Position numbers and translations under genes: made by a program
From: Yuukianura sp. NJ FZ-2021
Taxonomy: Eukaryota
Direction of reading: 5' to 3'
Length of the DNA: 64,000 nucleotides
Assembly: GCA_046563655.1 (NCBI GenBank)
Contig: CM102287.1
Location: 3,410,001-3,474,000 of the forward strand
Notes under the pieces: model-generated
The model's input: only the letters and a program-made list of their open reading frames with translations
Told to the model about the DNA's origin: nothing
Databases searched by the model: none
Shown: in pieces, positions 1 through 63,170 of the stretch
How positions within the stretch are numbered: the stretch's first letter is position 1
Layout: every line of letters starts with the position of its first letter

Positions 1-839
1 ACGATTCCTGAAACTAATGGAGTCCCCCTTGTAGCCGACATGTCCTCAAACATCTTCTCCAGACCCATCGACGTCGCAAAGGTAACACGCCACTCACAAT
101 TTATTTGGAAGATTTCAAGGTCAAAATCCAAATTTTGAAAAAAGTTGAATGAATGTCGATCATTTCGCAGAAAATATGGAGAAAGATGGTTGACCTTTGA
201 CCTTGTTTTAGTTTGGAGTGATTTTCGGTGGAGCTCAGAAGAACATTGGGCCGTCGGGAGTGACGATCGTGATCATTCGTGAGGATTTGATGGGTAATGC
301 CCTCAAGTACACTCCAACAGTCTTTGACTTTGCCACCATCGCCAAGGACAACTCACTCTACAACACGCCACCAAGCTTCGCGTAAGTTGACCCCACAAAT
401 GACCTCGGTTGACCCCAACTCTGGGAAAGTTGTTTCAAATGTGTTTGAATGCAGGATCTACGCGATGAACCTCGTGTTTGACTGGATCCTTGCTAACGGA
501 GGTGTTGAGGAGATGGAGAGTCGTGCGTTGAAGAAGAGCAGTTTGCTGTACGAGACGATGGACAGTTCGAATGGCTTCTACATAAACAGTGTCTCCCCAG
601 AGTGTCGGAGTCGCATGAACGTTGTGTTCCGAATCAAGAATTGTGAGGAGCTGGAGAGTGCCTTTGTGAAGGAGGCCAAGGCCCAAGGGCTCCTGGGACT
701 CAAGGGCCATCGCTCAGTCGGAGGCATAAGGGCCTCCATCTACAACGCAGTTCTGCCACAGCATGTCCAGAGATTGGTCGATTTCATGATCAAGTTCCAG
801 CAAAAACATCAAAGTGAAAAAGGAACCGAAACGTTGTAA
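1..839 (+). CDS. PSAT1: Phosphoserine aminotransferase, 3' part (5' end outside window); exons <1-81, 212-381, 455-839
   Basis: Spliced translation gives [36 protein letters not shown] (PLP lysine), [18 protein letters not shown] and [21 protein letters not shown] introns keep frame. Confidence 0.96.
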
Positions 840-1374
840 ACGTCAAGGTTTAAAAAACGCCGCCATTGAATCTTCATTATTCATCAATTTTTAAAATATT
901 CCGAAGATTCCGTTTTATTTAAATTTAATTTATATTTTAAAACTAATTATACCTGTACAATTAAGTTTAAAGTCATCAATAAAATTCTGATACCCCCGAA
1001 ACTGTTGTCCAAAATTTTTGGCGGGCAACTTTCTCCTTTGCTTTCTTTTCAAATTTTTGGCAAAAAGAAAGGATGAGCAACGCCTAGATTTTCTCTTTTT
1101 GCTTTCTCCTCGGGTAGCGTCGAGAGAAATTTCAGCGATTTCGAAAACTTCAAAATTCAAACTGAGGTCAAAGTTCATCAAAGTCAAAGTTCATAATATT
1201 TCCGTGATCTCCACATTTACAAACTACCGTGACCTTCCTAGTGACCTCGGACTTTGTGGAAACTTTTAAGTTCAAAAGGAATAACTTAGAAGCCAATTTA
1301 AAAAAAATATTGAATTCCTGTAGGTCAACTAATTTTAAATGTCAGTTAATTTGTTGTTCCATCTTCGAAAAACT

Positions 1375-1447
1375 TACGTGTTCTTACGTAATCCCGTCTT
1401 ACGTGTCTGACGTGTAACGTATTTTACGTGTAACGTGTTTCACGTGT
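1375..1447. promoter_or_regulatory. Dense cluster of ACGT-core motifs (TTACGTG, TTACGTAA, TGACGTG, CACGTG) upstream of the Ly6-like gene
   Basis: About eight ACGT cores in ~70 nt of AT-rich DNA; regulatory role is inferred only. Confidence 0.35.
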
Positions 1448-1692
1448 TTTCTTGACAGGTGACGAAGATGAAGGGGTAAGCCTTAACTGGGTCAGTAGGT
1501 CACAGTCTCCTCCTTGCCACAACTCACAACACAGCAACCATTTACTTCATCACAACTTATAACTTCACAAACTGCAACAACTTTTCAAAATTTTAGATTT
1601 TTAAACAATGTCTAAAAATGACACGTTTCAAAATAGGATTCCACTTTATAAAAAAATTAACATTCAAAAAATAGTTTAGAACAAAATCAAGA

Positions 1693-2487
1693 ATGCCGAG
1701 AGCAGAATCGTTTCAGCTCTTGTTCTTCCTCATGTCAGCAATACTTGCCAGGACTTCATCAGTACAAGGTAAGTAGCCTCAATTCACCAAGGTCAATGAC
1801 CTCACCGTGACCTCAATTGAATCACGAAGTTCAATGACCTCGTGACCTCTCTTTTTTTCAGCGTTGTCGTGCTACCAATGTCTTCAACTACCTTGTGAGT
1901 CCTCCTCACTTTGTCACTCCATCAAGCTGTCCATGTCCAACATTTTCTTTGCGCGCCGAAACCACTTGGAGTTCAACCCGAACGTGACATGCCCTTCGGC
2001 TCCATTCGGAAACACGACGACTTGGAGTCCATATAGTCACGAATGTCGCAAAAGCGACTCCGTCTGTCTCCAGGCCAAAGTGGAAGTGGTCACATCATTT
2101 TCTGGCCTAAGGGACTCCTTGGCCCTGGATCCAATGTCGGACACTTCGAGCAAGGGGTACTTAAGGGCCTGTGCCAGTCGTCGCTTCTTGTTGAGCCTCA
2201 GTGAACCAACGCTGGAGGTCAAAGATCAAGAAGCCAATTTGACCTTGGCTGGGTTACGTGACGACCAAACTTCCGCGGACAAATTCTCGGCGGACAAATT
2301 GACCTTGACGGAAATATTCTTCCACCACTTCTACATGGACCATGGAACAGACGACGCAGTAAAGTGTATCCGAGACAACTGTAATGCAAAAGACCCACCA
2401 CCGGAGAATGGTGGCTCAGAAAAGCCCCACCAGGCCCCACCAAAACTTGTTCTCATTGTTCTCAGTTTGTGTTTCTTTAACCTGTAG
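1693..2487 (+). CDS. Ly6/three-finger (quiver/sleepless-like) secreted, probably GPI-anchored protein; exons 1693-1768, 1862-2487
   Basis: Signal-peptide exon MPRAESFQLLFFLMSAILARTSSVQ, phase-1 intron, then LSCYQC...C...RACA...CIRDNCN and a hydrophobic C-terminus (LVLIVLSLCFFNL). Confidence 0.75.
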
Positions 2488-3093: not shown

Positions 3094-3958
3094 TTAGCTC
3101 CATGCCTGCCCGACTCTTCTGAACACCCAGCTCTCCAGGTCACGCCCCTCCGTTCCAGTGCTCACATCAACTGATCCATACAGTTTAAATCCAAGTCCAC
3201 GCAGATTGGCCAGTATCTGATTGAGTAACATCCGAGATCGAACTGCCTGGGATCCATCAGGCCACCATGGACAGCCTTCCAGCTTAAACTCAAAGGCTCC
3301 ATGATAATCCTTCTCCTTCTGGATTCGACCATTCCATTGAGTAGTAATTGCTTCTCGGACGTACGGAACGACGTTCGGTGCTCCGATTACCCTTATACGG
3401 TCACCCATGTTGAAACTAAGGCCGAATCTACCAAAAACATAACAACAATTAACGTATCAACGTAATAAAAACGTTTTGTCACGTCATGGTTCGCTTACAT
3501 CTGGACTTCTGGATCTGGATGGCCGTTTTCGAAGAAAAGTGTATCCTTATCTCCTGGTTTCTTGCTCACATCAGCTGATTGAATCAAGTTCCAGCCGTGA
3601 CGGGCCATCGTCGCTAGCACGGCGTTCAGCAGTGTCCGAGCAGTGACCGCCTCAGAACCGTTGCCCAACCAAGGATTTCCAACCAGCTACAACAAGTAAT
3701 CAATCAATTAAAAGACACAATAATGGTAAGTTTTTCTAAACTTTTTAGAGCAAAACGTTTTTGCTACGCTCTAACCTTGAACTCATGTGTTCCATGGTAC
3801 TCTCGTTCGTCTTGAATGTTGCCCCAGCTTCGCTGAATGGCCTCTCGGAGGTCAGAGGTCAAGTTCGTCGGAACTCCAACCAATCGGATTCTGTCTGTCA
3901 TGTTCAAAGAAATTGAACATACCTGGATAGAGCCACTGGAGGCAGCGTTGTAGTTCAT
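3094..3958 (-). CDS. Unknown-function protein with two internal repeats, copy 1; exons ~3958-3776, ~3687-3498, ~3428-3094
   Basis: Splices in frame; repeat motif DRIRxxG.P...W..IQ.E..YHG..EFKL.G.PW...G..AV..R.LL occurs twice; close paralog next door. Confidence 0.85.
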
Positions 3959-4481
3959 CCTTGTTTTAAAAAACTGTTCAGCTAAACTTTAAAATAACTT
4001 TTATAAAAAGTAAAAACACATTGCAAATTCCACGCAATCTTTGTCCATTCGACTGATCCGCTTCCAGAAACTTTTGGATCAAAAACTTATCTCTTGTGAT
4101 TTTCCTTATGTACTAAAGTACAAGAGGAAAACAAACCTCCGGAATCTCCCGAATTTTTTGTAAACACAAAAACACATAGCTTTTTTGTGTTTGCAAAAAA
4201 AAAATGTTTTCAAAATTTTTATCAAAGTTAGATAAAGTGGAACAAAAAAAATTGCAAAAAATGCACTACACTTGAGATGCAATGCAAATCAATGAACGTT
4301 TTTTACAATGTTATTTTCTGTAATCTTGTTTAAAGCTGAAGAGTTTGTTTTCGAAAAATAAACGTATTGTTAGATAATACTCGCAAGTTAAGGCTTATGT
4401 GCAACAAAAGGTCAAAGGTCACAGCTGAGTTAGGGTAGGTTAGTTGCGATTAATACGTTTTTTGTTTTGAAACTGTCGTTT

Positions 4482-11047: not shown

Positions 11048-11426
11048 AGTTGGACTTTTCAGAAAAATTCGTTCCAAAAAAAATTGGAATTGAGAAATTT
11101 TACTGCAAAGTTAATGAAATCACAAAAAATTCGAAAAAGTCGTTTTTATTTTGAATTTTTTGAGACTTTTCAACTTTAGTTTTTTACTCTCAACATGACA
11201 AGCTTTGTTAAATCGTTCAAAAACCTCACATTAAAATTCACTTTTTTGCAAAATTTATAACTCTGAATTAGTAATAGTCACGTCCAAAACGAAAGGGCAA
11301 GTACACCCAAACATGTTAATGAATATTTCACAACACAACATTAGTTTATTATTATTATTTTACATTAATTATTTTATATTAATTATTCTACAATAATTAA
11401 TTCAAACTTTAGCATCTTTTTTTCTC

Positions 11427-12789: not shown

Positions 12790-12962
12790 AAGGAAGCTTC
12801 AAAAAGTTGACCTCGTGACCTCTTAAGGAAGCTTCAAAAAGTTGACCTCGTGAACTCTTAAGGAAGCTTCAAAAAGTTGACCTCGTGACCTCTCAAGGAA
12901 GCTTCAAAAAGTTGACCTCGTGACCTCTTAAGGAAGCTTCAAAAAGTTGACCTCGTGACCTT
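12790..12962 (+). repeat. 35-bp tandem repeat, ~5 copies (AAGGAAGCTTCAAAAAGTTGACCTCGTGACCTCTT)
   Basis: Units start at 12790, 12825, 12860, 12895, 12930; array ends about 5 nt before the GABA-B-R3 ATG. Confidence 0.95.
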
Positions 12963-12967
12963 CCCCC

Positions 12968-15900
12968 ATGGGGAAAGTCACTTTCTTTATTTTTGTAGTC
13001 ACAGCTTTTCTCAAAATTCAAAAAATGGAGTTTTTGGAAACCATTTCAAGTGTTGAACATCTTACTGTTCCTATGTCAAGTAACACAAGTGACATGAGTG
13101 ACGCAAGTGCAGAGGTCACGTCGAGGTCAAAGGTCAAGAGTGTCACAATCCTTGGACTGTTTGAATTGACACAAGGCGGGGTCAAGAGAGGTCACGGCGC
13201 CAGCGAAAAGTACATTCCATAACCTTTCCTATTGAATTCTAAATTATCCTAGTTGAATGAGTAGTTTGTACAGGATTTTTTAAAGTTTTAAGATTTCAAA
13301 ATTTTGAAAGCTAAACAATACGAATTGAAAAGACAATTTTTAATCAGAAATGATTGAATTTGTGTAGATTTGCTGCTGAAATGGCGTTGAAGGATATCAA
13401 TCGCAAGAGAATTTTGAAAGACTACAAACTCACTATGCTCAGCAACGACACTAAGGTATAGCAAAGTTTTTTGAAATTTATTTTTTGAATTTCAAATTTT
13501 GAAAAAATTTCAACACATAAACATTATGGAGATGACCATTCAACTGTTAGCATAAGTCTTTTTTTGAAATTTCAAAAAAAAAATTGAAGACGCTTGGCCT
13601 CATTTCGCCATACAGGTTGAAAAAAGTTGAATTTTTTTCATAAAATCGTCATAAAACTGAATGAGCAGCACGAGGTCATTTCATCTCGCTTTTCAAAGGC
13701 AAAAGTTTATTTCATGCAGGTCAAAGGTCACTATAACTCTTTTCGAAATTTCGGCTTTTTGGAATTCTACTTTTCGGAATTTTATGAACGCTTTGATAAA
13801 AATGATGAAGGAGAACATGAGGAACAGTTGGAGTTTCTGGACCGAGTTTTGCTGTAACGTTTTTGAAATTAATTTAGAAAATTAGAATTGTAGAAACTCT
13901 GTTTCAAAAACTCATTTTCTAAACATGATTCAATTTTGAAGAGAGACAGAGAAAGTGTTTTGGTCCTCTGAGGGTTCTTAATTACAAAATGGATGAATGT
14001 CACACAGCGGGATTCAAATAGGATTTTCAAAATTCTCTCGAAATTGAAGCCTTTCAACCATTTTATTTCCAAACTCATTCATATTATTTAGTAACCCAAT
14101 TTTGGAAATTTGTACAACCCATTACGTTTTTAAAACTAAAACAAAAATCAAAGGCAACAAAACCATCCTGGACAAAATCGGCTGAAACTCGGCCAAATTC
14201 GGCCGTAATTGGCTGAAAATCGGCCTAATTGGCTGAAACTCGGCCGTAATTGGCAAAAATGCGGCCTTAATTGGGAAAGAAAATTTAAGACTGCTTGTTT
14301 TTTTCTAAATTTCTGAGTGGTTGTCAAATCCTTCAACTTTTTCTCTTTCCGTGTTTCTTTTGTTGACTTTGTGTTGGAAATGTGATTCTAATTGGTGCCT
14401 TATGCTTTCTCTTCCACAGTCATTTTAGTTAGTCAGTCACTGGGAAAATTTTGGTGAAAGTGAAACCGAAACTTTGTTCCAAATGAATTTCCTGTTCAAT
14501 GTCCCAGAAAACGACGACGGGAGCGGCGCACCACGAAAGTGGCGCCGGAAAAAAAGTTCTCACATTACAAAATTCGACTCCTCGATTTTCCCTCCATTCG
14601 AACTTCCTCTTCCTTTGTCTTTTATTCCTCAAGATGAAGCGGATGCCGAAGTGTGTGGTTTCCATGACGACGCTATCTTCATCTCCCACAGATTTGAATA
14701 GACTTCAAGCACATCTTCAACTTGGGACTCCACTTGAAAGCCAAAAGTTAGGTTAAAACGTTAAACCAAAAAGAATAAGTTCAAACTCATCATCTTTTAC
14801 AAACAGAAAAACTTCATCTTCATTTTCATTTTCATTCATCTTATTTCTTTCTTTTCACCAAAATTCCAAAAATAAGTTTGTTTACTCAACAGAAACTAAT
14901 AAAAACCGAATTCTAAAATTCTACGTTCTAAAAAAGTGATAAATTTTTAGAAAAACTTGTACAGTCCAAATTCAAAATTTCAATCTACCAAAATTGAAAA
15001 TGAAAGGATGAAGCTTTCCACTTTCAAAAAAAAAAGTTGAATTTTTTGAAAATTCATGCTTTTAATTAGTAGTGCTGTTTTGGTGGAAGCTTTTTGAGCC
15101 AGTACAATCCAAAATTTTCGTAGTTTGCTACATCCAGAAAGTTTTGTACAATCTCAAAATTTGGAAAAGTGTAAAAGTTTGTGTAAACTTATATTTGTGA
15201 TTGTGATTGGTGGAGCAATTGGTGAGGTGTAAAATGAGTGTTAATTAATGAGTTTGAGTTGTTTTGGTGTTGAAACAGAAAGTTTTAGGAGTGGGGCATG
15301 TTGTGTTGCTTAGTGTTTGAAGAGGCGTATAATTGGATGTTGGATGGTTTCGAGAGAAAGTGAAGCTTAAGGTTAACCTAATGGTTAGGTTATGTTAACC
15401 TAAAGTAAAGTAAAGTGAAAGTACAGAAATCCACGTACTTTTAGTGGCATAGCATGGACCACATTCTCCACTTCCTTAATTTCCCAACCATCGTCATCCT
15501 CTCTAATCTTCCTTTCACCACATAACTATAAAAACACTTAGCAAAAACTCCCGGTCATAAACTATTATCATTTTTCACACTTTTTCTCAAAAAATGTGTG
15601 AAAAAATTTCGATGATGAAAAAAATTATGAAAAGACTGCAAAATTTGATGTGGTCAGAGTTGCGGGAGTCGCTAACTAAAAAAAACCCATAGTATATGGT
15701 TGAATAATATGATTGGTTTTTATCAAAAATTGTTGAAAATTAAAAAAAAATAGTTAGATTCAACTAAAATTTTTGGATTCTTTTGAATTACTTCATATTT
15801 TATGATTATATTTCAACTTCTGGGTAGATTTGGCTCATTTTTTGTGGTTTTTATGTATGGGTTTGTTTTATTGGTTCAAAGTTTTACTCGATTTTGTGCA

Positions 15901-18900: not shown

Positions 18901-21900
18901 TTCTGGGGAATTTCTGAAATTTATTTTACTCTTTTTTGAAATCCAAAATGTCCAGAAATAAGCTGCTTTCCGGTTCATAAATTTCTGGATTGCTGTCGCT
19001 TTCCCCCAAATTTCTCTTTTCCCAGAATTTCTACTTTCTTTTCCGTTTTTCTGAAATGGTTACACTTTTTTTCGTTTTCTTCCGGGAATAATTGAAAGTT
19101 TCAATTGTGGATTGTATCTCACTTTGGGTTGTACTAAATTGAGTAGATTCGGGTTGAAATTGAAGTGGAATTTGACAGAACCAATCAGCGTTTAAGTATC
19201 ATCAATTCTCCTTTCGTCTGAGGAAGAACAGTTTTGATCAGAGGAAGTGGCGGGGAATTAGGGAGAAGGGAAGCACTTGACCTAAATAGAATGTGTCCCA
19301 ATATTTTGTGGATTGAAGTCTCATTTCAATTGAAGGGAAGAAGCCTATTAGGGAAGTCCTTAGAAGTTTCCGTTGAGAGACCCTGTTGCACCCCTTCAGG
19401 AAGTCAAGAAGGATGGGGATTAGCGGGGTAAGTACAGGCTTCACAACGGCACAAGAAAGCTCATTAGAAAAGGAGAAAGCAAAGAACTTCACAAAACATC
19501 CACAAAGAGAGGTTAAACAGAAGTACTCAAGGAGAGAAGAAAAGAGTGGGTGGAAAACGCGTGGGGGAAGAGAAAGTAAATAGTGGTGGGAAATAGGAAA
19601 AAAAAATTAGAAAATGAGAGAAGGGGAAAATTTAAAAAAAATTGGAAAGTAGTGGAAGGAAAAATTAAAAAAAAAAGAAAATTGGAAAACTAGAGCGTAG
19701 CGAAAAAAACGAATAGTTGAGAAAACGGAAAAAAAGTTGGGAAAAGTGAAAATTTTGGGGAAAACTTAACATTTTTTTGATTTCAAAAAAAATTTAGCCC
19801 ATGAACATTTTGGTGACAAACTTGGAGAAAGCCAACGTGACGGTCAAGGCCACACTAACTTTTTCCATGTCGGACTTGAGAGAACAACTGGAGTATCTCA
19901 AGGTAATTCAAAGTCGTTTTCTTAACAGTTTGTAAATTGCACTAATTTTAACTTTGTAATTAACACAAATTAAATCAATTAACTAAAGTTTAGACAATTA
20001 TAATTTCTCACCTTGTTTTTATTTGATATTTCAAAAAAAAAACTTTGAAAAATCTTTGAACTTTAACTTTGCAGGACGTGGACGCTCGAATCATAATTGC
20101 AAGTTTCAATGCTCAATTGGCTCCAACTATTTTCTGTCAGGTAAACACTTAATCTTTCTAATTAATTAAGTAATTAATTAATTATAAAATGTTAAACTAA
20201 TAACATAACCATGCACGTCATTCAAAACATTACAAATCCAACTCTTGAAATAGTCCCAAAGTAAAAGTTTTCATAAAACTCTGGAATGTTCTTGGCAGAA
20301 GTTGAGATTTTTATGAAACTTTCACTCTGCTAAACCCGAAAAAGCAAAACCTTAAAAAATGCTCTAAATTTGCCAAACCCAATATAGTTAGGCTATGAAA
20401 ACAAGGGGGTAATTTTGATTTGATTTGGAAGCCTTATTATTCCTCGTCAGTACGTGATTAGGCTAACCTAATACTAAATTCTAACCGTCAGCAGAGATTT
20501 AATGTCGTAATTTCTCCATTTGATTTGTTTTTATGGATTCAGCAAAAACAAAAGGAAAGTTGAACTTCCGTTGCGTAATAAGCTACGTTTAGGCTTTTCT
20601 CTCAAAGTTTCTGTTGTGCAGGTTACTCAACCTATAGCTTAACGTGAGGCAACCGTTGCCTAACGTATTTTTTGAATTGACTAATGGAATTAAGGTCTCC
20701 TTAGAATCCATTAATGATTCAGCTGGAGAAAGCAGTCGATGTTCTTTAGAGTCAATAAATTTCAAAGGGAAGTGAAGCGAACTTTCTCTTTTTCTGGGAG
20801 GACTCATTTCAAAACGCAATTGGAACCAACAGCATCATTTACTAAAACAAAACAACACAGAAGCTCCCCTTTTAGCTTATGTTCAGTCTACCATTAGCCT
20901 AACTTATTCCGAAACCTAACATATTCTCAATCTCAACACAAAGCTCCATAAACAATCAAATCAAACAGTTCACTTTCACCAACACAAAAGTTTGGAAAAT
21001 GAAAACACAAAAGTTCAAAAAACTTTTGCAAAACCAAACATAAATGCTGGTTCAGAACTAAATTTTAAACATTTTCAAAAACGAAACTTAAAACTGCAAA
21101 AACCAATCTTGCTCTAAAATTCAACAAAAACTGAAAAAAAAGAGATCAAATATCAAATGTGATGAATTTTGACTATTTCAAGTTAGTTTTCCAGATTCTT
21201 TTTCTTGTAGAGAAAGTTGTTGCTTGTAACTCAAAACGGCTTTTAGTAGAGGAAGTAATTTAGATTTTATGTTTTAAAAATCCTGAAATATTTTGTAAAG
21301 TTTTTGTTTAAACTAGTGAAAGAACAGCCCTTGTTTTGTCTTTTCTCTCCCCATTTTGGAATGGTAGACAAAAATGCTTTCTCTCCTCTCTTTTCTCTTT
21401 GCTTGTAAGAAATGGAAAGTTGAGTCTCCAAATCCCCTCGTGGAAGAAAGTTTTTAGAGCTGATTTACAATGTGGAATTAACTTGTCCTTTTCAATCTCC
21501 GCCTTTCACTTTCCCGCCTTCCTCCACTTACACTTTTACATGGGACACATGACATGGGACTACACTTTTCTAAGACATGTCTTTCGGGGTGTTCCAAATT
21601 TGGAAAATGGGACAAAAGTGAAAGTGAAGCGAGCTTTCACTTTGCTCAAAACTCTTTTTTGTCTTTCTGCAACAGGTTCATGAAATGGGGATGTACGGGA
21701 GAGACTATGCTTGGATCCTCATTGGGAAGCCAGAGAGGAGGTGGTGGGTGGGGGCGGAGAGGGGGAGGAAAAAAGGGGGCGGGGCGAGGAATTTGACCTT
21801 GACAGGTCAAGGTCAACCACCCCCTCAAGTGACCTGTACGCTGGACCAGTTGGGTCAAACGATGGAAAACGCCTTGATTGTGGACCGCCACAACTTCATT

Positions 21901-36647: not shown

Positions 36648-38049
36648 TTATTGGTTGTCGTCTCCAATGCTACGCATCAGACAGAGTGAAAACAGGACTC
36701 CCAAAATCTGTAATTCAAAAAAGGTCAAAGGTCAAATTTTCGCTCCAAAAAAGGTCAAAAGTCAAATCTTTTCGCGCCAAAGGTCAATGCCAAGGTAAAC
36801 TTACTTGCAAAAGTGCTAGACCGCCAGAGCTGGCTCCAATGACCAGTAAATAACACCAGAACCACTTTATGAATTCGTCAAAGCAGCCCTAAGACAAAAA
36901 TCGAACAAAATAAGTCACGTGAGTGTTTTTGACCCGGGGTCGAAAGGTCAAAGGTCAACACATACCTTGTCATGTCGGAATTGAATATCAGTTTGCTCTT
37001 TCTGGCATTCTTGCTGATTGACTGGTCTTGGGTGAACCCACTCGTCTTCTTCTTGATACTAAAGATCAAAGTGGGTCAAAATTGAGGTCAAAAGGTCAAA
37101 ATTAAAAGTCAAAAGTTAAAATAAAAGGTCAAAGGTCAGCTTACCTCGTTAGACAGAACACAACAGGTGAGCGGATAGATTTGGCTTTGGTTGAAGGGTC
37201 TTCCATGTGGATCGTAAGGTCTGTTGTAGTCACTGGCACCTTCCACCCCACAACACTTGAACTATTAAAATATATTAATAATTATATTAAATATATTAAA
37301 AATATAAATAATAAAATATAAAATTCCAATGTAACAAAATTTTGGAATTCAAAACCGTTATGCTTACAGTGACTTGAGTGTGGTTGAAAGCTGCCGTGAA
37401 GTCGTGATCGTGCGTGTAGCTTTGACTCCAGTGCGTCTTCAGTTGACCTTTGACCGTCGCAGTGTCCGGGAATGTCCACCAGTAGTACAGCGTCCCAAGT
37501 CCAATCGCTGCCTCCACAAAGCAAATCAGGATCAGGAAGAAGATGTACTAAATACACCAAAAACAGCAAATTTTTAATCAAACTTGGCTTTTTCTGTCAA
37601 AAATTTTGCCTAGATTTGACTTTTTGTTGTTTGCTTTTTGCTGGCATCGGCTTTTGACCTTGACCTTACCGTTCCCACCATACATTTGCTTTCTTGTAGT
37701 GCTCCACAGCATCCAAAGAATCCAACAAACAAAATACTTCCGCCCAGTATGATACTGGCGTAAGCAACGTAGTCCACGATTTCCTTTGGGAATTTGTTAG
37801 GTTCAGATTCGACCAAACTGAAGAGAAAAGCGTATCCTTTGTCATACAGCAAAACTGCACCCAACGCCACAAATGCACAGCCAGACGCCTAAAAAGTAGT
37901 TAATTAATTACAATTAACTTATAAAAACTAAACTAAAACACATAACACTTTACATATTATTTCATGAAAGTGAAAGTTCTTACCCAAAACAGTAGGTTGT
38001 AGATGATTACAAACGTTTTTGAGCATCTCGGCCCACAACATGCAGACAT
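36648..38049 (-). CDS. Tetraspanin (TSPAN1/18-like), 7 coding exons; probable 5' UTR exons near 38200 and 40177-40330
   Basis: YNLLFW, VGFFGCCGALQESKCM, KCCG in the large loop, YPLTCC, GC, four TM segments. Confidence 0.92.
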
Positions 38050-39165: not shown

Positions 39166-41430
39166 GAATGTTGAAGTGAGGTCACCTGGAGGTCATTGAC
39201 CTCGCTAAATTCGCCAGCAGTGAATGACCTTTGAGCGATTGATCTGCCTTGATGACTTTGTCACCTTTCCATTTCTATTTTTAGTGGTAGAGTCATTAGG
39301 CCTATTTTGAAATTCCCCGGAGGATCATTAGACTAGGTGTGATCATTTGTGGTTTTCTGTTACTTTTGTTAGGTTATAGACTCCTTCCAGGAAGTTAGAT
39401 ACGATTGCACTGGACTAAAAGAGTTGTGGAATTCCAGCTACAAGGGAGTTGTAAGTAGACGGAGCTTATCGACCAGGAGGCTGCTTCTGGATAGACACAA
39501 ATCGCTTTCACTTCCGCGCTTTCTCCAATCCACTTTCACCAGCTTCTATTCTTTAACCTTTTGTGGAACTCAAACTACAAGGATTAGTTACTCCCTCCAG
39601 TCTAACATCAAATCTAAAATTATGTTCAGACAGAAGTATTTTTTTAAAAAATACTTAGTTTTTTGAAGTCATTTTACTAAAAAATATGATTTGTTTTAAA
39701 AATTTCATTTCAATTTTTTTCATTTTCCACATTTTCAGTTTCACAATTAAACGCCGGACGAAGAAATTCATGATGAAATTGTGAGACCGATTAAGAAATT
39801 CAGATAGCTGGAACCTCCGAATGGCAGATAAACAGTTATTTTAAAAAATAGAAAGCACACCCTATTCGAAATCGAAACATATCTTTTTCAAAATTTTGAA
39901 AAAGCGAGTTGTACATTGGAAAAAAAGCAACAGGCTACTAGAAGTGTATAATTTTGGTTTGCTTAAAGCTCAAAAGAGCCCCTGAATTGCATGTATTAGG
40001 ACGATCGACTTTCTCCGGAAGTGAAAGTCAATTGGATTAGATTACTTGATTATACACACACCCATTTCTCCAAACAATCATGTTTCCAAATCTTAATTTT
40101 ACAAACATCTTGTTCAAACAAATGTTTCTCTAACTTTTTAGAACAGATTTTCAAAAAGAAAATTCAAAAATCTTACCGCCTTTACCGAAATTCGGCAGAT
40201 TTCACTCAATTTCTTCCTCTTTTTGAAATTAAAGCAAAACTACTTCTAGTCTGTTCGGGAAAAGCAGCGGATGTGCTTCTTTTGGTTTTTGATTTCCGAG
40301 TAAACAAATCCACCCAAACAAGTTCCACTTCTGTTCAAAAGTGAGTTTTTGAACAGACACTTTTTAGAAAATTGGACTTTTTAAAACAAAAAGTGGAGAG
40401 TGTAGTGGAGAGGGAGGAGGTAGGAGTAAAACTGGTTTAATAAAAATTCGGACTACTCCGATTTTCGGGCGCTCCCTTCTTCTTCCTCCCCGACTTGACC
40501 CTCGCACAAGCTCCTCAAAACTCAAATGCTGTTTTAAAAAAAGATTTTGAACAGCACAACTCCGCTTGCGCGAACACTGCTCCACCCTGACACTTGAATT
40601 CCCACGGCCACGCATCAACAACCATACAGAACAAGCAGGGACCCTTCGTTTTTCAACGCACTCGACCTCAATTCCTCAAAACTTCTTCAAACGAACAACT
40701 TTTCGAAAAAAAAACTGAAAAAAAAAAAAACTCACTTTTTGTTTTTTTACAAAAAAGTGAAAAACATGCGATCAAACAGTGATTTTACGAAAAAAGTGGA
40801 AAATGTTTGTGAAACTGAAGACTTAAAAATATTATAAGGAATAAGGAAAAACGCAAAAAACACCAAAAATCACTAAAATTTAGTTTTTCTGCGTTTTGTA
40901 TTTGGTTTTATGCGTTGCAAGTATTATTAAACATTTTAGTCAACCTAACGTACTTTTGTAAACAAATTTTACACAAAACCAAAATAAGTTTGAAATTTTC
41001 GAGAACATTAATCAAGTACTGACAGAAACTTCCTGTTCTCGCAAAAATAGATAAAGTTTCTTCTTTTTCAAAAAAGTTTCATAAAACCAGAAGAAATTAA
41101 CCGTTGACAGTTGAAATTGGAAGAGAAAGTAAAAAATTGACTCCTCATAAAACTTACATTTTGATTTTAGGAACAACTGAAGATTTTCGAATATTCAGAA
41201 AAGTTAACTTTTCCTAGATTTCCGACACAAGAGATCACATTAACTTTTTCAAAAGTTGTGCATATACATAACATTTATAACTTTTTTGAGTATTTTAAGT
41301 AACAAGACCTTACCAAACATACAAATTACAAACTTACTAACTTCAAACTGCCTTTCAATTAACTTTAACTTACCTTGTACAATTAAATATGTTTAGTTCT
41401 CTTGCAGTTTAACTTTTTAGTAACTGAGCT

Positions 41431-46548: not shown

Positions 46549-47935
46549 TTTGTTCTAGATCCAATCCAATCTTCCAGAAGAATCCAGAACACCGAACCTA
46601 CCACAACAAATGAAATCTCAAATTCAAGGCAAAAGTTAGTGGTTTCCATGCGTCATTCAACCTGAAATGTAATAAAACTTACCCAAAAACTATCGAGATG
46701 AAGCGATCAATCAACCAGATCCTGGAGGAGTCGAAATCTAAAGAATATGAAAATTTTCTCTCCTTGTCTTCCGGTTTACTTTTTAACGCAGTGTCGTCCG
46801 TGTCTTCCTCCTTCAACTTTCAACTGAAGACTGCTGGGTTAAAAATAAGTACAGGAACAATGCAGTGACCTTTTTTAAGAACAACCATAAAATCAAACAA
46901 GGAAACGAAACTCTCCCTCCTCGTTGCCTCGCACTTACTTTTCCAATTGCCTTTCTTTTCTTTTTCTTTGATTGATTTACCGCTGTCCCTCTCAGTGCCT
47001 ACCTGCATACGGCAAAGTTTTTCCCGCTTTTTGCATGAATTTAGCGCCGTTCAGTTTTATCTTACCTGTACGATTGACTAATCCACAGAATACGCAGATT
47101 CTTTAGCTTTCTGAATTTGTATATAAATAACAATTTTTTAAAATGTTTTATCTATTCATTACTTTGTTACATAGTTATGTGATTTGATTTTTACAGTTTT
47201 ATCATCGGTTTTGCTTAGAGTTTTCAGAAATTAACTTTACAATAAAATTTTTACAAAAAACGTAAAGTGTTGAAGATGCAAATTACCAATGCATGGCGAA
47301 TGTGTTGGAAATCTAATCATAAATAGCAAAAATCTATTAGCAATTGTGGAACAGTTTTGCAAATGATTTTTTCTTTGTGTGTCAATGACCTCCATGACCT
47401 CTTTTGGTCATAGCTTCTGGAAGACGGCTTAAGGGCTAAGCCTCATTGACACAGACTTTCTCCCGTTCATCCACAAGTCCCCGAATTCCACCGGATGCAG
47501 ATGTATTGAACTCTTTTTTTGTGTTCATTTCAACCGACGACGACTTGACTTCCTTCCGTTTTTCCCTCTCTATCTTCATCCTCGTCCTCATTTCTAAACA
47601 TTATAGCCTACCGAATGCGATGCTTTCAACACAAAAACTGCAGGGAAAGACAGAAGTCGAAAACATACGAGATCTCTCGCATTAATTTCAAAATTTCAGC
47701 TAAATTCTTAATTTGAAAATTATTAAAGAGTACGAACTTAAGGAAACTTTGAACCTCCTCTTTCAGTGAATTAGGTAGGTACATGGAAATTAATCTAACA
47801 TTTTGAGAAAATTGTGAAAAATTTGACATTATGCATTTTTTTGTCTTTGCAGTTTTTCTGGGATTCTGAGGTTTGGGCATGCCGGAATTTCGTGACCTGT
47901 GACCTGGAGGCGTCTTAACAGCGAAGCATGGACGG

Positions 47936-49390
47936 ATGGAAGATCGTCGCTTGATGTCCAACGATGAACGAGCTAATTGCCACCTTCCACCTATCGTCAA
48001 TGCTACAAAAACGTCATCAAATTTTTACTTGGACGAAGATCTCTTTGACAGAGTTTTAGGAATTCCAGCGAAAGTAGAGATTCCGCAGCGATACGTTGCA
48101 GATCCAGAGGAGTTGACTCCAGAAGAGAAACTGTGGAGGTCAAAGAAGGCTGAAGCCATTTGTCGCTTGTTGGCCAAGGCTGGTGGCCCTACTCAATCGC
48201 TGCTCGTTCCCAAAACGTCACCGAATCATACTTCGGCAGGACTCGGAAAACAACCGAGCAGTAGAAGCAGCAGTGGATTTTACAGTGGGGGGACATTGAC
48301 CTTGGGTGCTGGTGCAGGCGGGAGTCGACAGTCGCCCCAAAGTTTACCTGTGAGTCCACTGTTTCAACGGCAGCAAACCAGTCTAAGAAGAACGACACCT
48401 TCTGATTGGTCAATTAATTCACCACGGTTTCAGTAAGTTCAATTAATTAGTTAATTCTAAAACTGAACTTCATTGAAAAGTTTAAGCATTTAACAAGGCG
48501 AATCCCATTTTAACCGTCGCAACGAACAAACTTTAGTGTTAACAAAAAGGCGCGAAATTCAAAAATATTATTTTCTTCCGGCGTTGATTTTATTTTGAAA
48601 AAAAAAAAACCTAACAAAGACCTAACCATTCTGTACTCAATGAGTTTCGGTTTTAATTAGTTGTTCAATTAATTGCAATTTAATTACTTTGTGTTATCAC
48701 TGTTCGAGCTTCTGAATTGCTGAGTGTGAGGTATCGATTTGCTAATTATCTCTAATCAATTTCTCAATTTGAATTTTTGAGAATCAAAACAGCTGAGCGG
48801 ATTATGTTTCTGGATTTTAATCACATTTTTCTTTAAAAAAATTTCAAGGTTAATTAAGTATATGATTGATTATCGACTTATACTTTTTTTTTGTTTTTAG
48901 ATACTCAAATCGTCGCGGAAGTATTCGACGTGGCAGTGTCCACTATCTGGAGGAGCAGTACTTTGAAGACGCTCACGACGGCATAAGGTTAAGAGAAGAA
49001 TCAATCGCTGCTGAAGAAGCAAGACGAAGAACAGGTCAAGGTCATTACAGGCCTTCCTTGTTACAAAGTGCAAGTTGTGAACCTTTTGTAACTGTCGCTC
49101 ATAATACCCGCGGTGAGTCTCCATCAGTTCGTCCTTCATCTTCGGACTCCCAGAGATCACATTCATCAACTCTGTCCAGCTCAACATCTTCGTCTGACCG
49201 AGATCGGGAAGATATTTTTCACCTTCATCATCTCCTGGCCAAAGAAGTGAGTCAACGGAGTCAAGCAATTGCTCGTCGATCGCTAAATCCTTCACCGAAG
49301 AAACAACCTCCACTTTACTACGATCCACCTTCGCCTCCCTTATCCCCCCGACTGCCAATTACTCAACAACGAGAAAACTACTTAACCTGA
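47936..49390 (+). CDS. Orphan, largely low-complexity Ser/Arg/Pro-rich protein (~328 aa); exons 47936-48432, 48901-49390
   Basis: Two long stop-free, GC-richer ORFs joined in frame by a strong GTAAGT...TTTTTAG intron (CA|A = Gln); no recognised domain. Confidence 0.7.
48549..48563. promoter_or_regulatory. E2F/CDE-CHR (DREAM-type) composite GGCGCGAAATTCAAA; candidate internal promoter
   Basis: Exact composite inside intron 48433-48900; a related TTTGAATTTCGCGC is at 58985-58998. Confidence 0.45.
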
Positions 49391-52460: not shown

Positions 52461-55400
52461 ATGACGTCTTCTAGTAACGGCATTCCTCCTCCATTGAGTT
52501 CCCAAAGTAACCCACTTCACGACTACCAATCAGTACAACACGATCCGAATCCAAGGCCATCTCAGCAGGTCAGTAAAGTTCATCAATCGATTACTCTGTC
52601 AATCGATTACTCTATCTATCGATTACTAAATTAGTGAAAGTAATCGATTTGTTTTCGTTTTAGCTAAAGAAACGCTTCAGTTCCATCAGTTCCGACGACG
52701 ACATGATTGACATCACGCATCAGGGAACTGTAAATGAATTGGGAGAAGGTGACTTCCCCATGTCCAATCAGAGTAAGCTGTTTTTCAAAAAAGTTTTCAA
52801 AATTCAAAAAAGTAATTTCAAAATTTTGATTTTGGTTTTCACAGGTTATTATGATGATGATATCCCTGGAATCGGCCAGTATGAAGATTTTCATACGATC
52901 GATTGGCAACGGGACATTGCCCGTGATCGGATGCGTCATCGCTACATCATCAAGAAGCGACAGGTTAGAATTTCAAAAAACGTTCCTTTTACTTGGATTC
53001 TTTGAAAAAAACGTTGGTTGATCGTTTTTTTTCTTTCTTAGGAATCAGTATGTGAAATGATCCGAGGTGCTCATGATGCCTGGAGCGGCTGGCTATGTGT
53101 CCTGCTCGTAGGGATTTTGGCTGGAACCCTTGCAGGGGTCATTGACATTGGAGCCAGTTGGATGACCGATCTGAAGTTCGGAATTTGTCCAGAAGCTTTT
53201 TGGTTGAACAAGGAACAATGCTGTTGGTCATCAAATGAAACTGACTCAGTTTTGCAAGGATGTGCTCAGGTAATCAATACAAACCCAAAGGCTTATACCC
53301 GTTTTGAAACTTTTTATCAACTGCATTTTCAAAATTTCATAAAATTTTGATTTTTGAACAGTGGTTATCCTGGCCAGAAGTGTTCGGAGGCAGTTCGAGT
53401 GGTGCTGGAGCGTACATTGTGTCATACTTCTTCTACGTTATCTGGGCTCTGTTCTTTGCTTCATTAGCTGCTCTTCTAGTCCGCATGTTTGCTCCCTATG
53501 CTTGTGGTTCCGGTATTCCCGAGGTAAGATTTTCAAAAAATCTTCAAAATTAGTTTCTTTTCAAAAAAAAGTTTCAAAACTTAAAAAATTGTGGTTTTAG
53601 ATCAAGACAATCCTGAGTGGGTTCATCATCCGAGGGTACTTGGGCAAGTGGACACTGCTGATCAAGTCAGTTGGACTCATGTGCTCAGTATCTGCTGGGC
53701 TGAGTTTAGGCAAAGAAGGCCCGATGGTCCACATCGCTTGTTGTATTGGCAACATACTGGCTTATCTCTTCCCGAAGTATGGACGAAACGAAGCCAAGAA
53801 GCGCGAAATACTGTCGGCTGCTGCTGCCGCCGGAGTGTCAGTGGCTTTTGGAGCACCGGTTGGTGGAGTCCTGTTTAGTTTGGAGGAGGTATGACCTTGA
53901 CCTTCGACATTTTCTGCTCGTGACCTTTGACCTTTTCTAAAATCTCTTTTTTTTCTGACAGGTCAGCTACTACTTCCCCCTGAAGACCCTGTGGAGATCG
54001 TTTTTCTGTGCTCTAGTCGCAGCCTTTGTCCTTCAGTCCATCAATCCCTTTGGAAACGAGCATTCCGTTCTCTTCTACGTTGAGTACAACAAGCCCTGGA
54101 TCTTCTTTGAACTCGTCCCCTTCATCGGACTCGGAATTCTTGGGGTAAGTTTTTCAAAATTTCGAAATTTTGAAGTTTTTGAGAAATTTTTGAATTGTGT
54201 GATATTGATATTGGTGTTAGGGTATCATTGGAAATCTGTTTATTCGTGCCAACATCTGGTGGTGTCGATTTCGAAAATCTTCGCAATTGGGCCACTATCC
54301 AGTGACAGAAGTTCTTGTGGTAAGTTTAGCATAATCTTAACTAATATAAACTAACGTAACAAAATAATTGTTAATCAATTAGTTAATTAATCGTTGATTA
54401 ATTGTCGTTTTGGTTCCAGGTTACCTTTGTGACTGCAATTCTAGCATATCCCAACCCTTATACAAGAATGCCAACAAGCAAACTCGTAAGTGACTGTTGT
54501 TGTAAATCAAGTTTTTCAAGAAAACGAAACGAAAGACAAGTTTTTGAAAAACAGTTTTGTTTTGTTTGCTGTGTGTAGATTTATTTGCTCTTCTCCAGTT
54601 GTGGACCTGACAAACTTGATGCTCTTTGGTAAGATCTTTTTAGGATTAAAAAGAAAAAGCCTAAAGCATTTTGAATTTCCTAATTTTTAATTCGTTTGCA
54701 GCGACTACAAGCGGAACTTCTCAAATTTGAATTCAGCGATTGAAATCGCAGCAGCAGGACCAGAAGTGTACAATGCCATTTGGCTCCTCGTCCTTGCCCT
54801 CATTTTTAAATTTATCGTTACCATCTTCACCTTTGGTATCAAAGTTCCCGCTGGACTGTTCATACCATCACTCTGCTTCGGCGCAATCGTCGGACGAATT
54901 GTTGGAATTGCAGTGGAACAACTTGCATAGTAAGTCAAAATACATCAAAAAATGTCAATGAAAGCAAGAATTTTGAGAAATTCACTGTTTGGAGAAAACA
55001 CTGAAATTTTGAATTATTTTAGTAACTACCAACACTTTTGGATCTTTGCTGGAGAATGTTCTGCCGGAGAAGACTGCATAACGCCTGGACTGTATGCTAT
55101 AGTAGGCGCCGCGGCGGTGCTGGGCGGTGTGACACGCATGACCGTGTCTCTTGTGGTGATCATGTTCGAGCTAACAGGAGGTGTGAGGTACATTGTACCG
55201 CTGATGGCCGCAGCGATGTCAGCCAAGTGGGTAGGAGATGCGCTGGGAAGACAAGGAATCTACGATGCCCATATCGCTCTCAACGGCTATCCCTTCCTAG
55301 ACTCAAAAGAGGAGTTTGGACATACGACACTCGCAGCTGATGTGATGCAACCAAGGTAACAAATCCAGTCTGAGGTCACGCGATTGACCTCTGACCTTTC

Positions 55401-56270
55401 ATTTCATTCCAAATTCTAGTCTGATGTGCTTGACCTTGACCTGATTTTTTAAATTTTAGGCACACTGAACCCCTGTGTGTGGTAACGCAAGACACTATGA
55501 CAGTTGACGACGTTGAAAGTTTACTCAAAGAAACGGAACACAATGGATTCCCAGTAGTAATCTCACATGACTCTCCTTTTCTCGTTGGATTCGTTCTACG
55601 CAGAGACCTCAACTTGGCTATTTCTAATGCAAGAAGAACCGTTGATGGAGTGGACGGCTCTTCGCTTTGTCTCTTCACCAACAACTTACCACAACAACAA
55701 CAACCAAAGACTGTAAGAACGACAGTAACAAAGTTAATCGATTTACTAAATTTTAATTGTTCATTTTTGATATCAAAGTTTTGAGATTTTGATATCTGAG
55801 ATTTTGATATCAAAATGAGATTTTTAAGGCAGTGAATTGAAAGTTATATTGAATTTGAATTTTAACTAACTTATGTTTTGGTCCCTTCTAGAATGAAGTC
55901 GTAGCGACTCCAGTTAAGCTAAAGAAAGTCCTGGACATGGCCCCTATTACGGTCACTGATCAAACTCCAATGGAAACAGTGGTGGACATGTTTAGAAAAT
56001 TAGGACTCAGACAGACACTCGTGACACACAATGGGTGAGTGACCTTGACCTTAAGTTTACTCTAACTTTGACACAACTGAATAAGCTAAGAAAGAAGTCT
56101 ATAAGTTGAATCTGCGATGATATTATAAATTGTGGAAGTTTTGGTAGAAAAGTTACTAAAATTGTACTTACTTTTACAGGCGCCTGTTAGGAATAATTAC
56201 GAAGAAAGACGTCCTAAGGCACATTAAGCATATGGACGACGAAGATCCAAATTCCGTACTTTTTAATTAG
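52461..56270 (+). CDS. CLCN3: ClC-3/4/5-type H+/Cl- exchanger (ClC-c), ~16 exons, long multi-exon 5' UTR from ~51000
   Basis: [20 protein letters not shown] (gating Glu), FSLEEVSYYFP, GLFIP, GIYDAHI.LNGYPFL, two CBS domains, ending DPNSVLFN. Confidence 0.95.
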
Positions 56271-56357
56271 TGACAGTAGTGGCTCCGTTTCCGTTGTGAA
56301 TGATGACAGAAGTGGAAGAAGCGACGATACCGTTGGAGGTGGGGCCAGGATGAGCTG

Positions 56358-60035: not shown

Positions 60036-60368
60036 ACAAATGACACTCTAGTTGCGGACGTTCGGACGATTTCTACTCAATTTAACAGATTTTACAGGAA
60101 TAAATGTTGTATTTAACTAGAGTTCCCACAGCAACAATCTCTTTATGAGTCTTCAGTATTTGTTGACCTAACCAATTTCTTTCAATCTCTTTCTCTCCCC
60201 ATTGCACCACGCTTGATCCAGAAAGTTGATCCTAACCTTTTCGAACCAGCAAGTTTTCCTGCAATTGCAACGGAAAAAAGTGTACACGGACGGAAACTTC
60301 ATCAATTCGTGGATTTTTGGGCAATTCTTTCGATTTGACGTGTGCTGCTTTTCGTTCTAGTCTTCAAA

Positions 60369-61454
60369 ATGCCAAACGACTTGGGTATTATGACCCTGGT
60401 GAAGTACGATGGACCATTTCTGGTCCAGAAGGAGCAGAAAAAGGATTTGAAAGTAAGAATTTTCCATAAAATATCAAAGAAAATTATGAAATGTGATGGA
60501 TTTGCTATGATTTCGATAGGATGATCCATACTTTTGTAAATCAACAAACATTGCTCATCTGAGCTGGAATCCAGATCCGAATGCCATCGCTTTGTGTCAA
60601 GAGACGCTGACGACTCAAAAGGGAATCGAAGAAGTGCTGAATGCCATGCAGCCACCGCTGATCTGGGAAGAAGATGGCAAGAAATGGAGACAAGTCGTAA
60701 GTAGTTTCCAAGAAATTCTTTGACAAATCACTTTTTCACCAAATATTTTCAGGTTTCTTCCGAAATCGCTTCAAGAGCTGACGTGATCTACCTCAATCGG
60801 GAACTGGAACATCGCCTAGTCATTCGGCAAGCTCGAACAGAAGGAATTTGTCCCATCCGACGCGAACTTTACGCCCAAGCTTTTGGTAAAGTTAAGAAAA
60901 TGAAAATTGTTAAAATTTTGATCTTTTTGTTTTTTATGTAAAGTTTCCTAATTTTTTGATTTTCAGATGAATTGATCCGTCAAGTCACCACGAACTGTCC
61001 AGAACGTGGGCTGGTTCTGCTTCGTGTCCGAGATGAAATGAAGATGACGATCAATTCTTATCAAGCTCTGAATGACGCTTCATCTGCTTTCGGAGTTTTC
61101 AAAAAACCGGGAATTGACACGCACAATCGCCTGCTCCACAGATTGGACCGAATTGACAATGATCGCCACAAGTTGCAAAGGGAGTTTCATGATTTGACGG
61201 AAGAGCTGGAACTGGTCAATCGCACTCTGGAAGAGCAAAGGCAGTCTGACGACAAACGACATTTTGAACAAGTTCAGTTTTTGAAAAGAGTCAATCAACT
61301 TCTCAAGGTAAACAAATCAAATTTTCTTTCAAAAAAAAAAATTCAAAAATTTCGAAATTTTGAAAAACTTCTATCAATTTTGCATCTGATTTCCATTTTG
61401 CAGTCAAAGTTTGACGGAGTTGTGAAAACCAAAACGGAAGACTACGATGACTGA
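60369..61454 (+). CDS. DNALI1: Axonemal dynein light intermediate chain p28; 5 exons
   Basis: TLVKYD, PPLIWEEDGKKWRQ.VSS, QARTEGICPIRRELYAQAFDELIRQVTTNCPERGLVLLRVRDE, QFLKRVNQLLK. Confidence 0.93.
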
Positions 61455-61595
61455 GAAAAATCGAACAGAAGCGAGCAGGTCAAAAGTCGCAATCTGAAAA
61501 CTTCTTCAAAACATTATTTTACTTGTAAGAAAATAAAAATCTATGTTTATTTATATTATAAGTTAAATTATATTTTATGTTATTTTAATCGATTC

Positions 61596-63170
61596 TTATT
61601 GACTAGACGTAGTTTCTATGTTCGTTTCCGAAGGAATGTTGCTCTGCCTAATAGAGCAGTCAATTGCATTTTGTTGTGGAGGAAGTTCCAGCGCAAGCGT
61701 CGAGTGCCTGGAACGAATGTGCCTGTCCAGGTCACGTCTTCTTACCAGCACTTTGGTACAGATTTCACACCTGAAACGAATCATTGCCATCGATCAGCGA
61801 TTAGTTAATTAGTGCAAGCCTTATCGCTTAAGCGATTTTTACCTGTACGGTGTGTTCCCATCAGCGTGCAGTCGAACATGTTTGTTAAGGTTGCTTGGAT
61901 CTCCGAACGGCCTTTGACAGATCTTGCACTGGAGGGGTTTGAATCCAGTACTGAAAGGTCAAGGTGAGATTAATCGAGGAAAAGTCAATTAATCGAATAA
62001 TTAATTACACACACAGATTTATGAATGACTTACTGTGTTCGAATGTGTATTTTCAGTCCATATTTCCTAGAGTAGAGTTTTCCACAGTACACGCATACGT
62101 GTGATCCGTTTTTCCCGCGTCCCATGTTGCTCATGATGGTTTCCAGTTGAGCTTGCTGGTCCGACAGCGATTTGACCTGCGTCGTGGTCACTATCGAGGT
62201 CAACTGACTTAGTCCGGATGCTGAGGTCAAAGAATTTGACCTTAGATGACCTTGACCTTTAGAGGCAGTACTGTTTGAGATTTGAGCAGAGAATGGCACC
62301 GAAGCTATTGCAAGCGACGCTGTTGATCCAGTAGTTGTGCTGCTACCGAAGAAGAAACTAGGTGGATCTCGTCCCACCGTGAACGATGGTGGGGCAATCC
62401 TAAAGTTTGGTGGGACAACTCTAAGGGTTGGTGGGGTAATTCTAAGGTTTAGGGATGGTGGGGTCATGACCCGCGGCGTTGCCATGCGACTCCATAGGTC
62501 ATCGATTGGTTGAGCTCCACAAGATAGAGCCAAATGTACTTTAAGTGGATTCGGAGCTTCAAATTCTTTCTGACACTTGTGACATCGGTAACTCTTGCCT
62601 CCTGAAATTCCAAAATTTTCTAAATCAAACTTTCAAAAAGTTTTTTAAAAATTGCCAAAAATTTTTTTGCTAATTAGGAAGTTAACACAAACCTACACAG
62701 ATCTGAACCAGCCTTCGTCATATCTAGGGTTTTACTTACACTTACAAAAATTTCAGAAATTTTTGTAACTGACATCAAACCTTACATCAATTTGACCTTT
62801 GACCTCGACAAGGGCATAGTTTTTGCTTAACACTACATAGTCTTTGGCTAACGTGAGCGTTTTTTTGGTTGACCTTACCTCGGATATTGTTAGGGTTAAG
62901 GTACGGTGGAATTCCGAGGTCGTTGACCAGCACATCTTCTCCGAACCACAGCAAAAGTTCATCTCCCGCTCCAATTTCTTTAGTGACTTGCAAAATCACA
63001 GCATCAGTTTGCCATTTGCAAATTCTGACATTCTGCACATGACAATCCGTTGCAAATTGGATACACTTGATCCAGAACCATGTCACCGGTTCAGCGTCTG
63101 CCCCGTTACGCTTCTTCCCTCTTGCAAAATTTTCGCAAACTTCCAATTCGCCATTTTGAGCCAGTGAAAC
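61596..63170 (-). CDS. PRDM13: PRDM13-like PR-domain zinc-finger protein (5' exon(s) not identified)
   Basis: PR fragment (KEIGAGDELLLWF); ZnF YRCHKC..EFEAPNPLKVHL; HVCVYCGKLYSRKYGLKIHIRTHTGFKPL.C..C.RPFGDPSNLNKHVRLHA.GNTPYRCEIC.KVLVRRRDLDRH. Confidence 0.92.

Follow-up and report, generated by a model that had tools for sequence, protein, structure and literature searches.

What keeps the hexamer AGGTCA so frequent, and so often in closely spaced pairs, is the question raised by a 64-kb stretch of the genome of the hexapod Yuukianura sp. NJ FZ-2021 (contig C5, positions 3,410,001-3,474,000, of a genome of 98.7 Mb in 22 contigs), referred to here as the window. A first-pass annotation had listed nuclear-receptor-like repeats at 18 positions and in four coding clusters, and all are present, at coordinates that are exact or off by one or two bases; three of the 18 (21937, 53892 and 56040) are direct repeats without a spacer, and that at 31747 carries one mismatch. 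The motif itself is a known one; its density, exactness and placement are unusual. The account preferred here, with about an even chance of being correct, is that AGGTCA pairs are kept by selection as putative high-affinity sites for nuclear-receptor dimers in gene bodies, EcR-USP being the first candidate.

Enrichment over a Markov background, one of the checks proposed for the motif, is readily observed. AGGTCA and its complement TGACCT together occur 175 times in the window against 27.0 expected under an order-2 model, making this the top hexamer, while matches to AGGTCANAGGTCA with at most one mismatch number 30 (20 exact), compared with 0.26 on average, and never more than 1, in 100 shuffles. 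Exact copies of AGGTCAAAGGTCA number 4,585 genome-wide and those of its reversed control 52; the 16 in the window amount to about five times the genome average. The inverted arrangement with one intervening base, AGGTCAnTGACCT, is found in 981 perfect copies (control 62). AGGTCA also ranks first among the hexamers of 28 evenly spaced 50-kb blocks, at 1,623 vs 515 with satellites included and, after masking, at 1,619 vs 697 under an order-3 model. No account of dense perfect AGGTCA pairs in gene bodies was found in the literature searched, the coverage of which was incomplete and excluded supplements. Similar richness in TGACCTTTGACC may be a feature of some fish and marine invertebrate genomes.

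The rules governing the pairs, and their placement, were studied in a 1.53-Mb sample (35 of 38 blocks, approximately 1.6% of the genome) that includes the window block and C1_2.30, a block chosen as motif-rich; C4_9.5 and C5_1.0 were excluded for satellite-like counts, and C1_10.0 for containing no half-site or control word. Tandem repeats (71 kb) were masked, as was, for the density, grammar and single-mismatch statistics, DNA resembling the HINE transposons discussed below. Direct repeats at spacings of 0 to 5 bases (DR0 to DR5) number 27, 114, 28, 5, 16 and 14, with 5-12 at each spacing from 6 to 12, and inverted repeats at spacings of 0 to 3 (IR0 to IR3) number 0, 21, 1 and 0, such that DR1 outnumbers IR1 approximately 5 to 1. 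Chains of one to four half-sites fall from 1557 through 114 and 4 to 0, making the dimer the unit, and the rate at which AGGTCA recurs after a single base (7%) is the highest among 3,813 hexamers, for which the median is 0. The DR1 spacer is A in 99, G in 13, C in two and T in none of the 114 cases, although C or T occupies 25% (5') and 37% (3') of the flanks of single half-sites; genome-wide, A spacers number 4,585 and C or T spacers 431.

Imperfect pairs are informative in the same way. Single mismatches fall at the six successive positions 14, 15, 5, 3, 3 and 2 times in the 5' half and 7, 11, 11, 8, 20 and 9 times in the 3' half (chi-square p 0.001), and genome-wide AGGTCAAAGGTTA occurs 335 times (control 25) as opposed to 62 times for AGGTTAAAGGTCA (control 40). 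With two mismatches, partners on the 3' side occur at close to the background rate (30 vs 24.8), and those on the 5' side somewhat more often than that (41 vs 22.6). As neutral decay would affect both halves alike, and partial duplication would leave its mismatches at inner positions, the concentration at outer positions, unequal between halves, is an argument for selection or another sequence-specific process.

The distribution of DR1 within genes is far from even. Gene models were produced by a self-trained gene finder in which motif bases were masked in the coding score, predicted genes shorter than 450 nt or with fewer than three exons being tallied separately; the predicted ClC exons match those from tblastn, the last ClC exon and the early GABA-B exons were missed, and some neighbouring genes were merged. 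Introns of up to 150 nt contain 52.3 DR1 per 100 kb (46 sites; 43 per 100 kb once the window block is left out), those of 151-500 nt 19.9 (9), longer introns 4.6 (10), intergenic DNA 5.2 (36) and coding sequence 3.4 (12), a difference of about ten-fold between short introns and intergenic DNA. DR1 density also climbs with coding fraction, from 0.28 to 1.16 per 10 kb over 153 tiles. The sites are clustered by gene: short introns without a site characterise 64% of 160 genes against 38% expected, a figure inflated by dimers. That many sites lie within about 30 nt of splice sites is correct but says little: of 55 short-intron DR1 in the unmasked sequence, 52 do so, with 49.0 expected under a uniform distribution (Kolmogorov-Smirnov p 0.90), because the introns are only about 80 nt long. 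Short-intron DR1 are divided 22 sense to 24 antisense, and this absence of strand bias implies that the signal is on DNA; the motif characterises gene bodies at the level of DNA and does not serve as a signal for splicing. Same-orientation neighbours outnumber opposite-orientation ones at short range. As regards a possible nucleosome code, which the first-pass annotation also raised, no peak in site pair distances near 150-200 nt is seen in coarse bins; the sites may have a role in chromatin or in binding.

Coding sequence is affected as well. In 113,715 predicted codons, the word is present 228 times as AGGTCA and 171 times as TGACCT, or 2.29 and 2.30 times the number given by synonymous resampling, a null under which eight control words range from 0.73 to 1.10; mis-predicted exons may contribute a few of the counts. 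The encoded peptides [KEQ]VKG[QH] (6 vs 0.3, all six encoded by the motif), G[QH]G[QH] (12 vs 2.3, 11 of 12) and G[QH]RS (7 vs 1.8, three of seven) are in excess; RS[KE]V (3 vs 3.6) and DLDL (1 vs 2.2) show none in the predicted codons. Coding dimers lie mostly in terminal or low-complexity stretches, in keeping with the suggestion that the window's coding clusters occupy weakly constrained sequence: EVTSRSKVK falls in the variable N-terminus of a GABA-B-R3-like receptor, directly before the conserved ILGLFEL strand, and the cluster at 21793-21815 lies in a loop of that receptor that exceeds its counterparts in the two insect homologues compared by about 22 residues. The latter cluster is read as coding because the hand-checked GT..AG pairs there would break the frame. 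Genome counts, block counts, the synonymous null and homologue alignments hence support the view that a motif of nuclear-receptor DR1 form is present genome-wide, far above chance density, and biases codons and peptides. In block C1_8.5 (C1 ~8,533,400-8,533,700), a perfect IR1 is found in a predicted kinase exon just past the DFG motif, and the word can therefore occupy a functional segment.

The sites within the window are as follows.

191..203, minus strand: short intron of a phosphoserine-aminotransferase-like gene, with an exact DR1 at its 3' end.
1790..1848, unstranded: perfect IR1 (1790-1802) and DR2 (1835-1848) in a predicted 93-nt intron.
3849..3861, plus strand: DR1 with G spacer in a predicted coding exon of a minus-strand gene, reading LTSDL.
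4409..4421, plus strand: exact DR1, non-coding, between two paralogous open reading frames.
12790..12961, unstranded: 35-bp minisatellite of 4.9 copies with a DR2 in its unit, masked in most statistics.
13113..13136, plus strand: half-site and exact DR1 in the likely first coding exon of the GABA-B-R3-like gene (EVTSRSKVK, variable N-terminus).
13718..13730, plus strand: exact DR1, non-coding, inside the span of the GABA-B-R3-like gene.
21793..21815, plus strand: half-sites and DR0 in the coding loop that is longer than in insect homologues, reading NLTLTGQGQ.
21936..22051, minus strand: DR0+DR1 trimer and a second DR1 in a 149-nt intron (21931-22079).
24676..24714, minus strand: DR1 and DR0 in a minus-strand gene, within its final predicted coding exon, reading QVKGHRRGQGH.
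25083..25268, plus strand: predicted exon with a DR2 (25083), and short intron with an exact DR1 (25256).
28362..28381, plus strand: short intron of the GABA-B-R3-like gene, with three half-sites spaced as in DR1.
31746..31758, minus strand: one-mismatch DR1, intronic, in an E(z)-like gene.
36267..36325, plus strand: exact DR1 and one-mismatch DR1 downstream of a tetraspanin gene.
36722..37666, unstranded: the densest cluster, DR1, DR2 and DR0 arrays in short introns of the tetraspanin gene.
39190..39202, unstranded: perfect IR1 upstream of the tetraspanin gene.
41976-41988 and 44000-44012: two exact DR1, oppositely oriented, in short introns of an ISWI/SNF2-like gene.
47893..49044, unstranded: C-spacer DR1 (47893), and predicted exon with a DR0 (49033).
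53892..56051, minus strand: DR0 and DR1 sites (53892, 53921, 55385, 55431, 56040) in three introns of a ClC-3-like gene.
62197..62258, unstranded: half-site cluster and DR0 in a PR/zinc-finger gene, within a coding exon of low complexity, reading KGQGH.
62793..62805, minus strand: exact DR1, intronic, in that PR/zinc-finger gene.

Genes in the window include those for a class-V aminotransferase, methyltransferases, a GABA-B-R3-like receptor, an E(z)-like protein, a tetraspanin, an ISWI/SNF2-like protein, a ClC protein, an Rpb7/Rpc25-type subunit, an axonemal dynein light chain and a PR/zinc-finger protein. The region 36600-37300, which takes in part of the densest cluster, is single-copy in the genome. 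At 3094-5243 are two paralogous minus-strand genes of no Pfam family, one with the coding DR1 that reads LTSDL and the other with a single half-site, and at 5994-12355 are four tandem Methyltransf_22-like genes on the minus strand, the introns of which contain no DR1. Two G+C-rich minisatellite arrays of 21/7-bp units (57438-57703 and 58481-58842) are inverted relative to each other and have outer flanks in common; together they make up a foldback of ~1.4 kb, which gives rise to long spurious open reading frames. The core exon of the ClC-3-like gene matches insects and springtails at 92-97%; its extra N-terminal stretch aligns with Allacma and Orchesella proteins, not with those of thrips or cockroach, and the genome is on this basis described as springtail-like. 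A set of 80 ClC loci from metagenomes contained one DR1-like site, none of these loci being clearly springtail and of useful length, and a search for GABA-B homologues returned no named springtail. The three motif-bearing ClC introns do not behave as Introner-like elements, being at positions shared with 6/8, 2/2 and 1/2 of the animal loci that show the respective anchors, in this one gene; nor is an interstitial telomeric repeat indicated, as TTAGG-type arrays were found at three of 16 large-contig ends and an AGGTCA telomeric array at none. Across the sample, the ratio of observed to expected CpG is 0.7-1.05 in nearly all blocks, and CpG depletion is therefore hardly evident. Motif-rich genes lean towards membrane, secreted and lipid functions and motif-free ones towards core machinery, but with a Pfam match for only 22/41 and 21/46 exons, and ISWI and ClC as exceptions, this tendency was not used as evidence.

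The closest known counterparts are the DR1 elements of RXR/USP, COUP-TF/Seven-up, TR2/4-Hr78 and HNF4, which, in the passages available (PMC2811727, PMC3384313, PMC6555819, PMC10345098), share the AGGTCA-A-AGGTCA consensus, the A spacer, orientation independence and a less frequent use of DR0, DR2 and DR4. The present putative sites differ in numbering thousands of perfect copies, concentrated in tiny introns and coding exons. An excerpt of PMC11843329 gives IR1 as the geometry of EcR-USP, as of FXR-RXR; its consensus AGGTCAATGACCT occurs here, with 981 perfect copies genome-wide and two in the window, but the natural ecdysone response element quoted there is imperfect, whereas perfect palindromes dominate in this genome. 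The uptake sequences of Haemophilus and Neisseria, as described in part of PMC2817400, are also short exact motifs in thousands of copies, with an excess of the peptides they encode and a preference for poorly conserved protein positions; they are bacterial, linked to transformation and mostly located in open reading frames, unlike these animal sites with their dimeric geometries and greatest density in introns. We know of no uptake process that would account for the animal case. A further likeness is to the HINE/DINE-1 elements, non-autonomous Helentrons whose anatomy of subterminal inverted repeats, microsatellite, central tandem array and 3' palindrome is set out in excerpts of PMC7492417. 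One family in this genome carries the motif within such a structure, with 11-bp subterminal inverted repeats, a GTCY (here GTCT) microsatellite and a 289-bp tandem unit, the first three HINE traits being found in copy L311, the 3' hairpin of which folds weakly (-1.8 kcal/mol). The array of this family contains DR1+DR0 trimers; the searched passages of PMC7492417 on HINEs make no mention of TGACC. In L311:986-2230 and the relatives L290-L314, the 289-bp repeat contains two inverted trimers 98 bp apart, and another 5' end directly follows L311.

On the receptor-site account, a receptor dimer would act from inside gene bodies through DR1, DR0, DR2 and IR1 pairs of AGGTCA. Sites would accumulate in short introns, because 80-nt introns are the sole free space within the genes of a compact genome, and would spill into synonymous positions and variable protein loops. 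The counts, distribution, spacer rules, mismatch pattern and codon effect are observed; it is inferred from them that a protein binds the pairs, that this would be a nuclear receptor, and which receptor it may be. EcR-USP leads the candidates, since a single heterodimer of its class could account for both IR1 and direct repeats; alternative binders of DR1 would be dimers of USP, Seven-up or Hr78. LXR belongs to the subfamily of EcR. In the available part of PMC6555819, LXR-RXR bound one DR1 in a 5'-half mode and receptors preferred A in DR1 spacers, and COUP-TFs are described in passages of PMC2811727 and PMC10345098 as binding DR1 best and other spacings too. There are 38 zf-C4 matches in the genome, with DNA-binding domains that resemble those of EcR, USP/RXR, Hr78, HNF4, Ftz-F1, Hr3, Hr38, E75 and others. 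On C1 (~1,919,765-1,923,000, plus strand), a C2H2 zinc-finger array is followed by five tandem diverged C4 domains of nuclear-receptor type, apparently in successive exons, which may form one protein with it; all five match PF00105, with P-box residues unlike those of the AGGTCA-reading type.

Several observations weigh against this account. The sites are more exact than natural response elements are expected to be: among A-spacer pairs, the 99 perfect partners exceed all single-mismatch variants pooled (53 on the 3' side and 29 on the 5' side), and the half-sites AGTTCA and GGGTCA, which receptors tolerate, are barely raised on their own (0.96 and 1.34). The HNF4-specific CAAAGTCCA reaches only 40 vs 26.0 expected (1.5-fold), as opposed to 214 vs 20.8 for CAAAGGTCA. 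The 3' half is the more mismatched (66 vs 42 single mismatches), a polarity opposite to that of human RXR, COUP-TF2 and HNF4, which according to part of PMC3384313 rely more on the 3' half. No concentration of DR1 upstream of start codons was detected in the sampled genes, and the receptor set looks ordinary, so nothing in it explains why this lineage should be affected. Retention between paralogues weakened once double counting and HINE copies were removed: in 104 non-overlapping duplicate pairs, 16 of 28 non-coding half-sites are kept against 9.4 expected, but at the level of pairs 6/15 are positive (Wilcoxon p 0.76), and four of 48 anagram words match the motif's retention ratio. Coding half-sites are kept in 10 of 19 cases against 5.9 expected, with 6/8 pairs positive (p 0.11).

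Exactness of this degree might instead result from transmission drive, in which a binding protein biases repair or gene conversion towards the allele with the perfect word, allowing spread without regulatory benefit as in bacterial uptake sequences. The spread of the word into synonymous sites and variable loops, a behaviour that an excerpt of PMC2817400 describes for uptake sequences, the absence of a promoter focus and the climb of DR1 density with coding fraction are all consistent with drive, but the DR0, DR1, DR2 and IR1 geometries fit transcription-factor dimers, and to our knowledge no such mechanism exists in animals, which leaves it unlikely. An animal counterpart of uptake sequences proper, in which a receptor-type protein at perfect pairs would bias repair or meiotic conversion, rewriting codons and loops, and the word would have been adopted by a rolling-circle transposon family, is by analogy conceivable and quite unlikely. 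That old HINE waves seeded the words, their flanks having since decayed, we regard as distinctly unlikely. The trimer does lie in the HINE-like family at 19 of its first 30 loci on C1, its order is biased 662 to 101 genome-wide, and the HINE unit has the trimer and a few more bases in common with the window site at 21936. Outside HINEs, however, the order is 5 to 3, and HINE-like DNA accounts for 15 of 155 DR1 (~10%), 13 of 49 DR0, 79 of 1,708 half-sites and none of 24 IR1, with no such DNA in the window block. The flanks of the 46 short-intron DR1 are no more HINE-like than shuffles (15.83 vs 15.79, p 0.37), and perfect cores amid fully decayed flanks would still require selection. Site flanks match elsewhere in the sample in seven of 134 cases, compared with 57 of 400 random places, in a comparison that covers about 1.6% of the genome and that low-copy families could escape. 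The idea that the hits are fragments of one transposable element family is accordingly not upheld.

Neutral growth of a 6-7-bp micro-repeat from a single AGGTCA through replication slippage is very unlikely, and can be considered largely refuted. Its attraction is that 86 of 114 perfect DR1 are formally exact 7-nt duplications and that local arrays exist (37074-37138), with the short-range excess of same-orientation neighbours; about 73% exact 7-nt duplications are already expected from flank composition, though, and the chains do not lengthen. Slippage predicts C or T spacers at approximately 0.55-0.75 of the frequency of A, where 0.09 is observed, and partial duplication predicts inner mismatches in place of the outer ones found. 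It leaves the excess of monomers and of IR1 unaccounted for; a palindrome cannot arise in this way, and IR1 thus counts for the receptor-site account. With arrays ending at dimers, a fixed spacer and mismatches at outer positions, the decayed micro-repeat suggested at first is not supported for these sites. The other early suggestion, a splicing code, here a lineage-specific one read on pre-mRNA, is scarcely credible. It would draw on the ten-fold excess in short introns and on the resemblance of sense TGACCT to a branch point, this word being commoner near acceptors (74 vs 20 in the last 35 nt of introns), an excess close to the general avoidance of AG there (CT 0.051 vs AG 0.019 per nt). Against it, DR1 use both strands and are uniformly positioned, the half-site is present in only 88 of 1,073 short introns, whose length is like that of the others (77.5 vs 79 nt), and the ends of long introns are not comparably enriched.

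If receptors do bind these pairs, this compact hexapod genome uses its short introns and exons as a dense receptor platform within gene bodies, altering protein sequence in the process, and would offer a clear instance, open to testing, of codons constrained by a transcription-factor motif. If the pairs instead have no regulatory effect, they are so exact as to point to a sequence-specific drive of a kind that the literature searched does not describe in animals. Either way, the AGGTCA motif is now a known confounder of annotation and motif finding in this genome.

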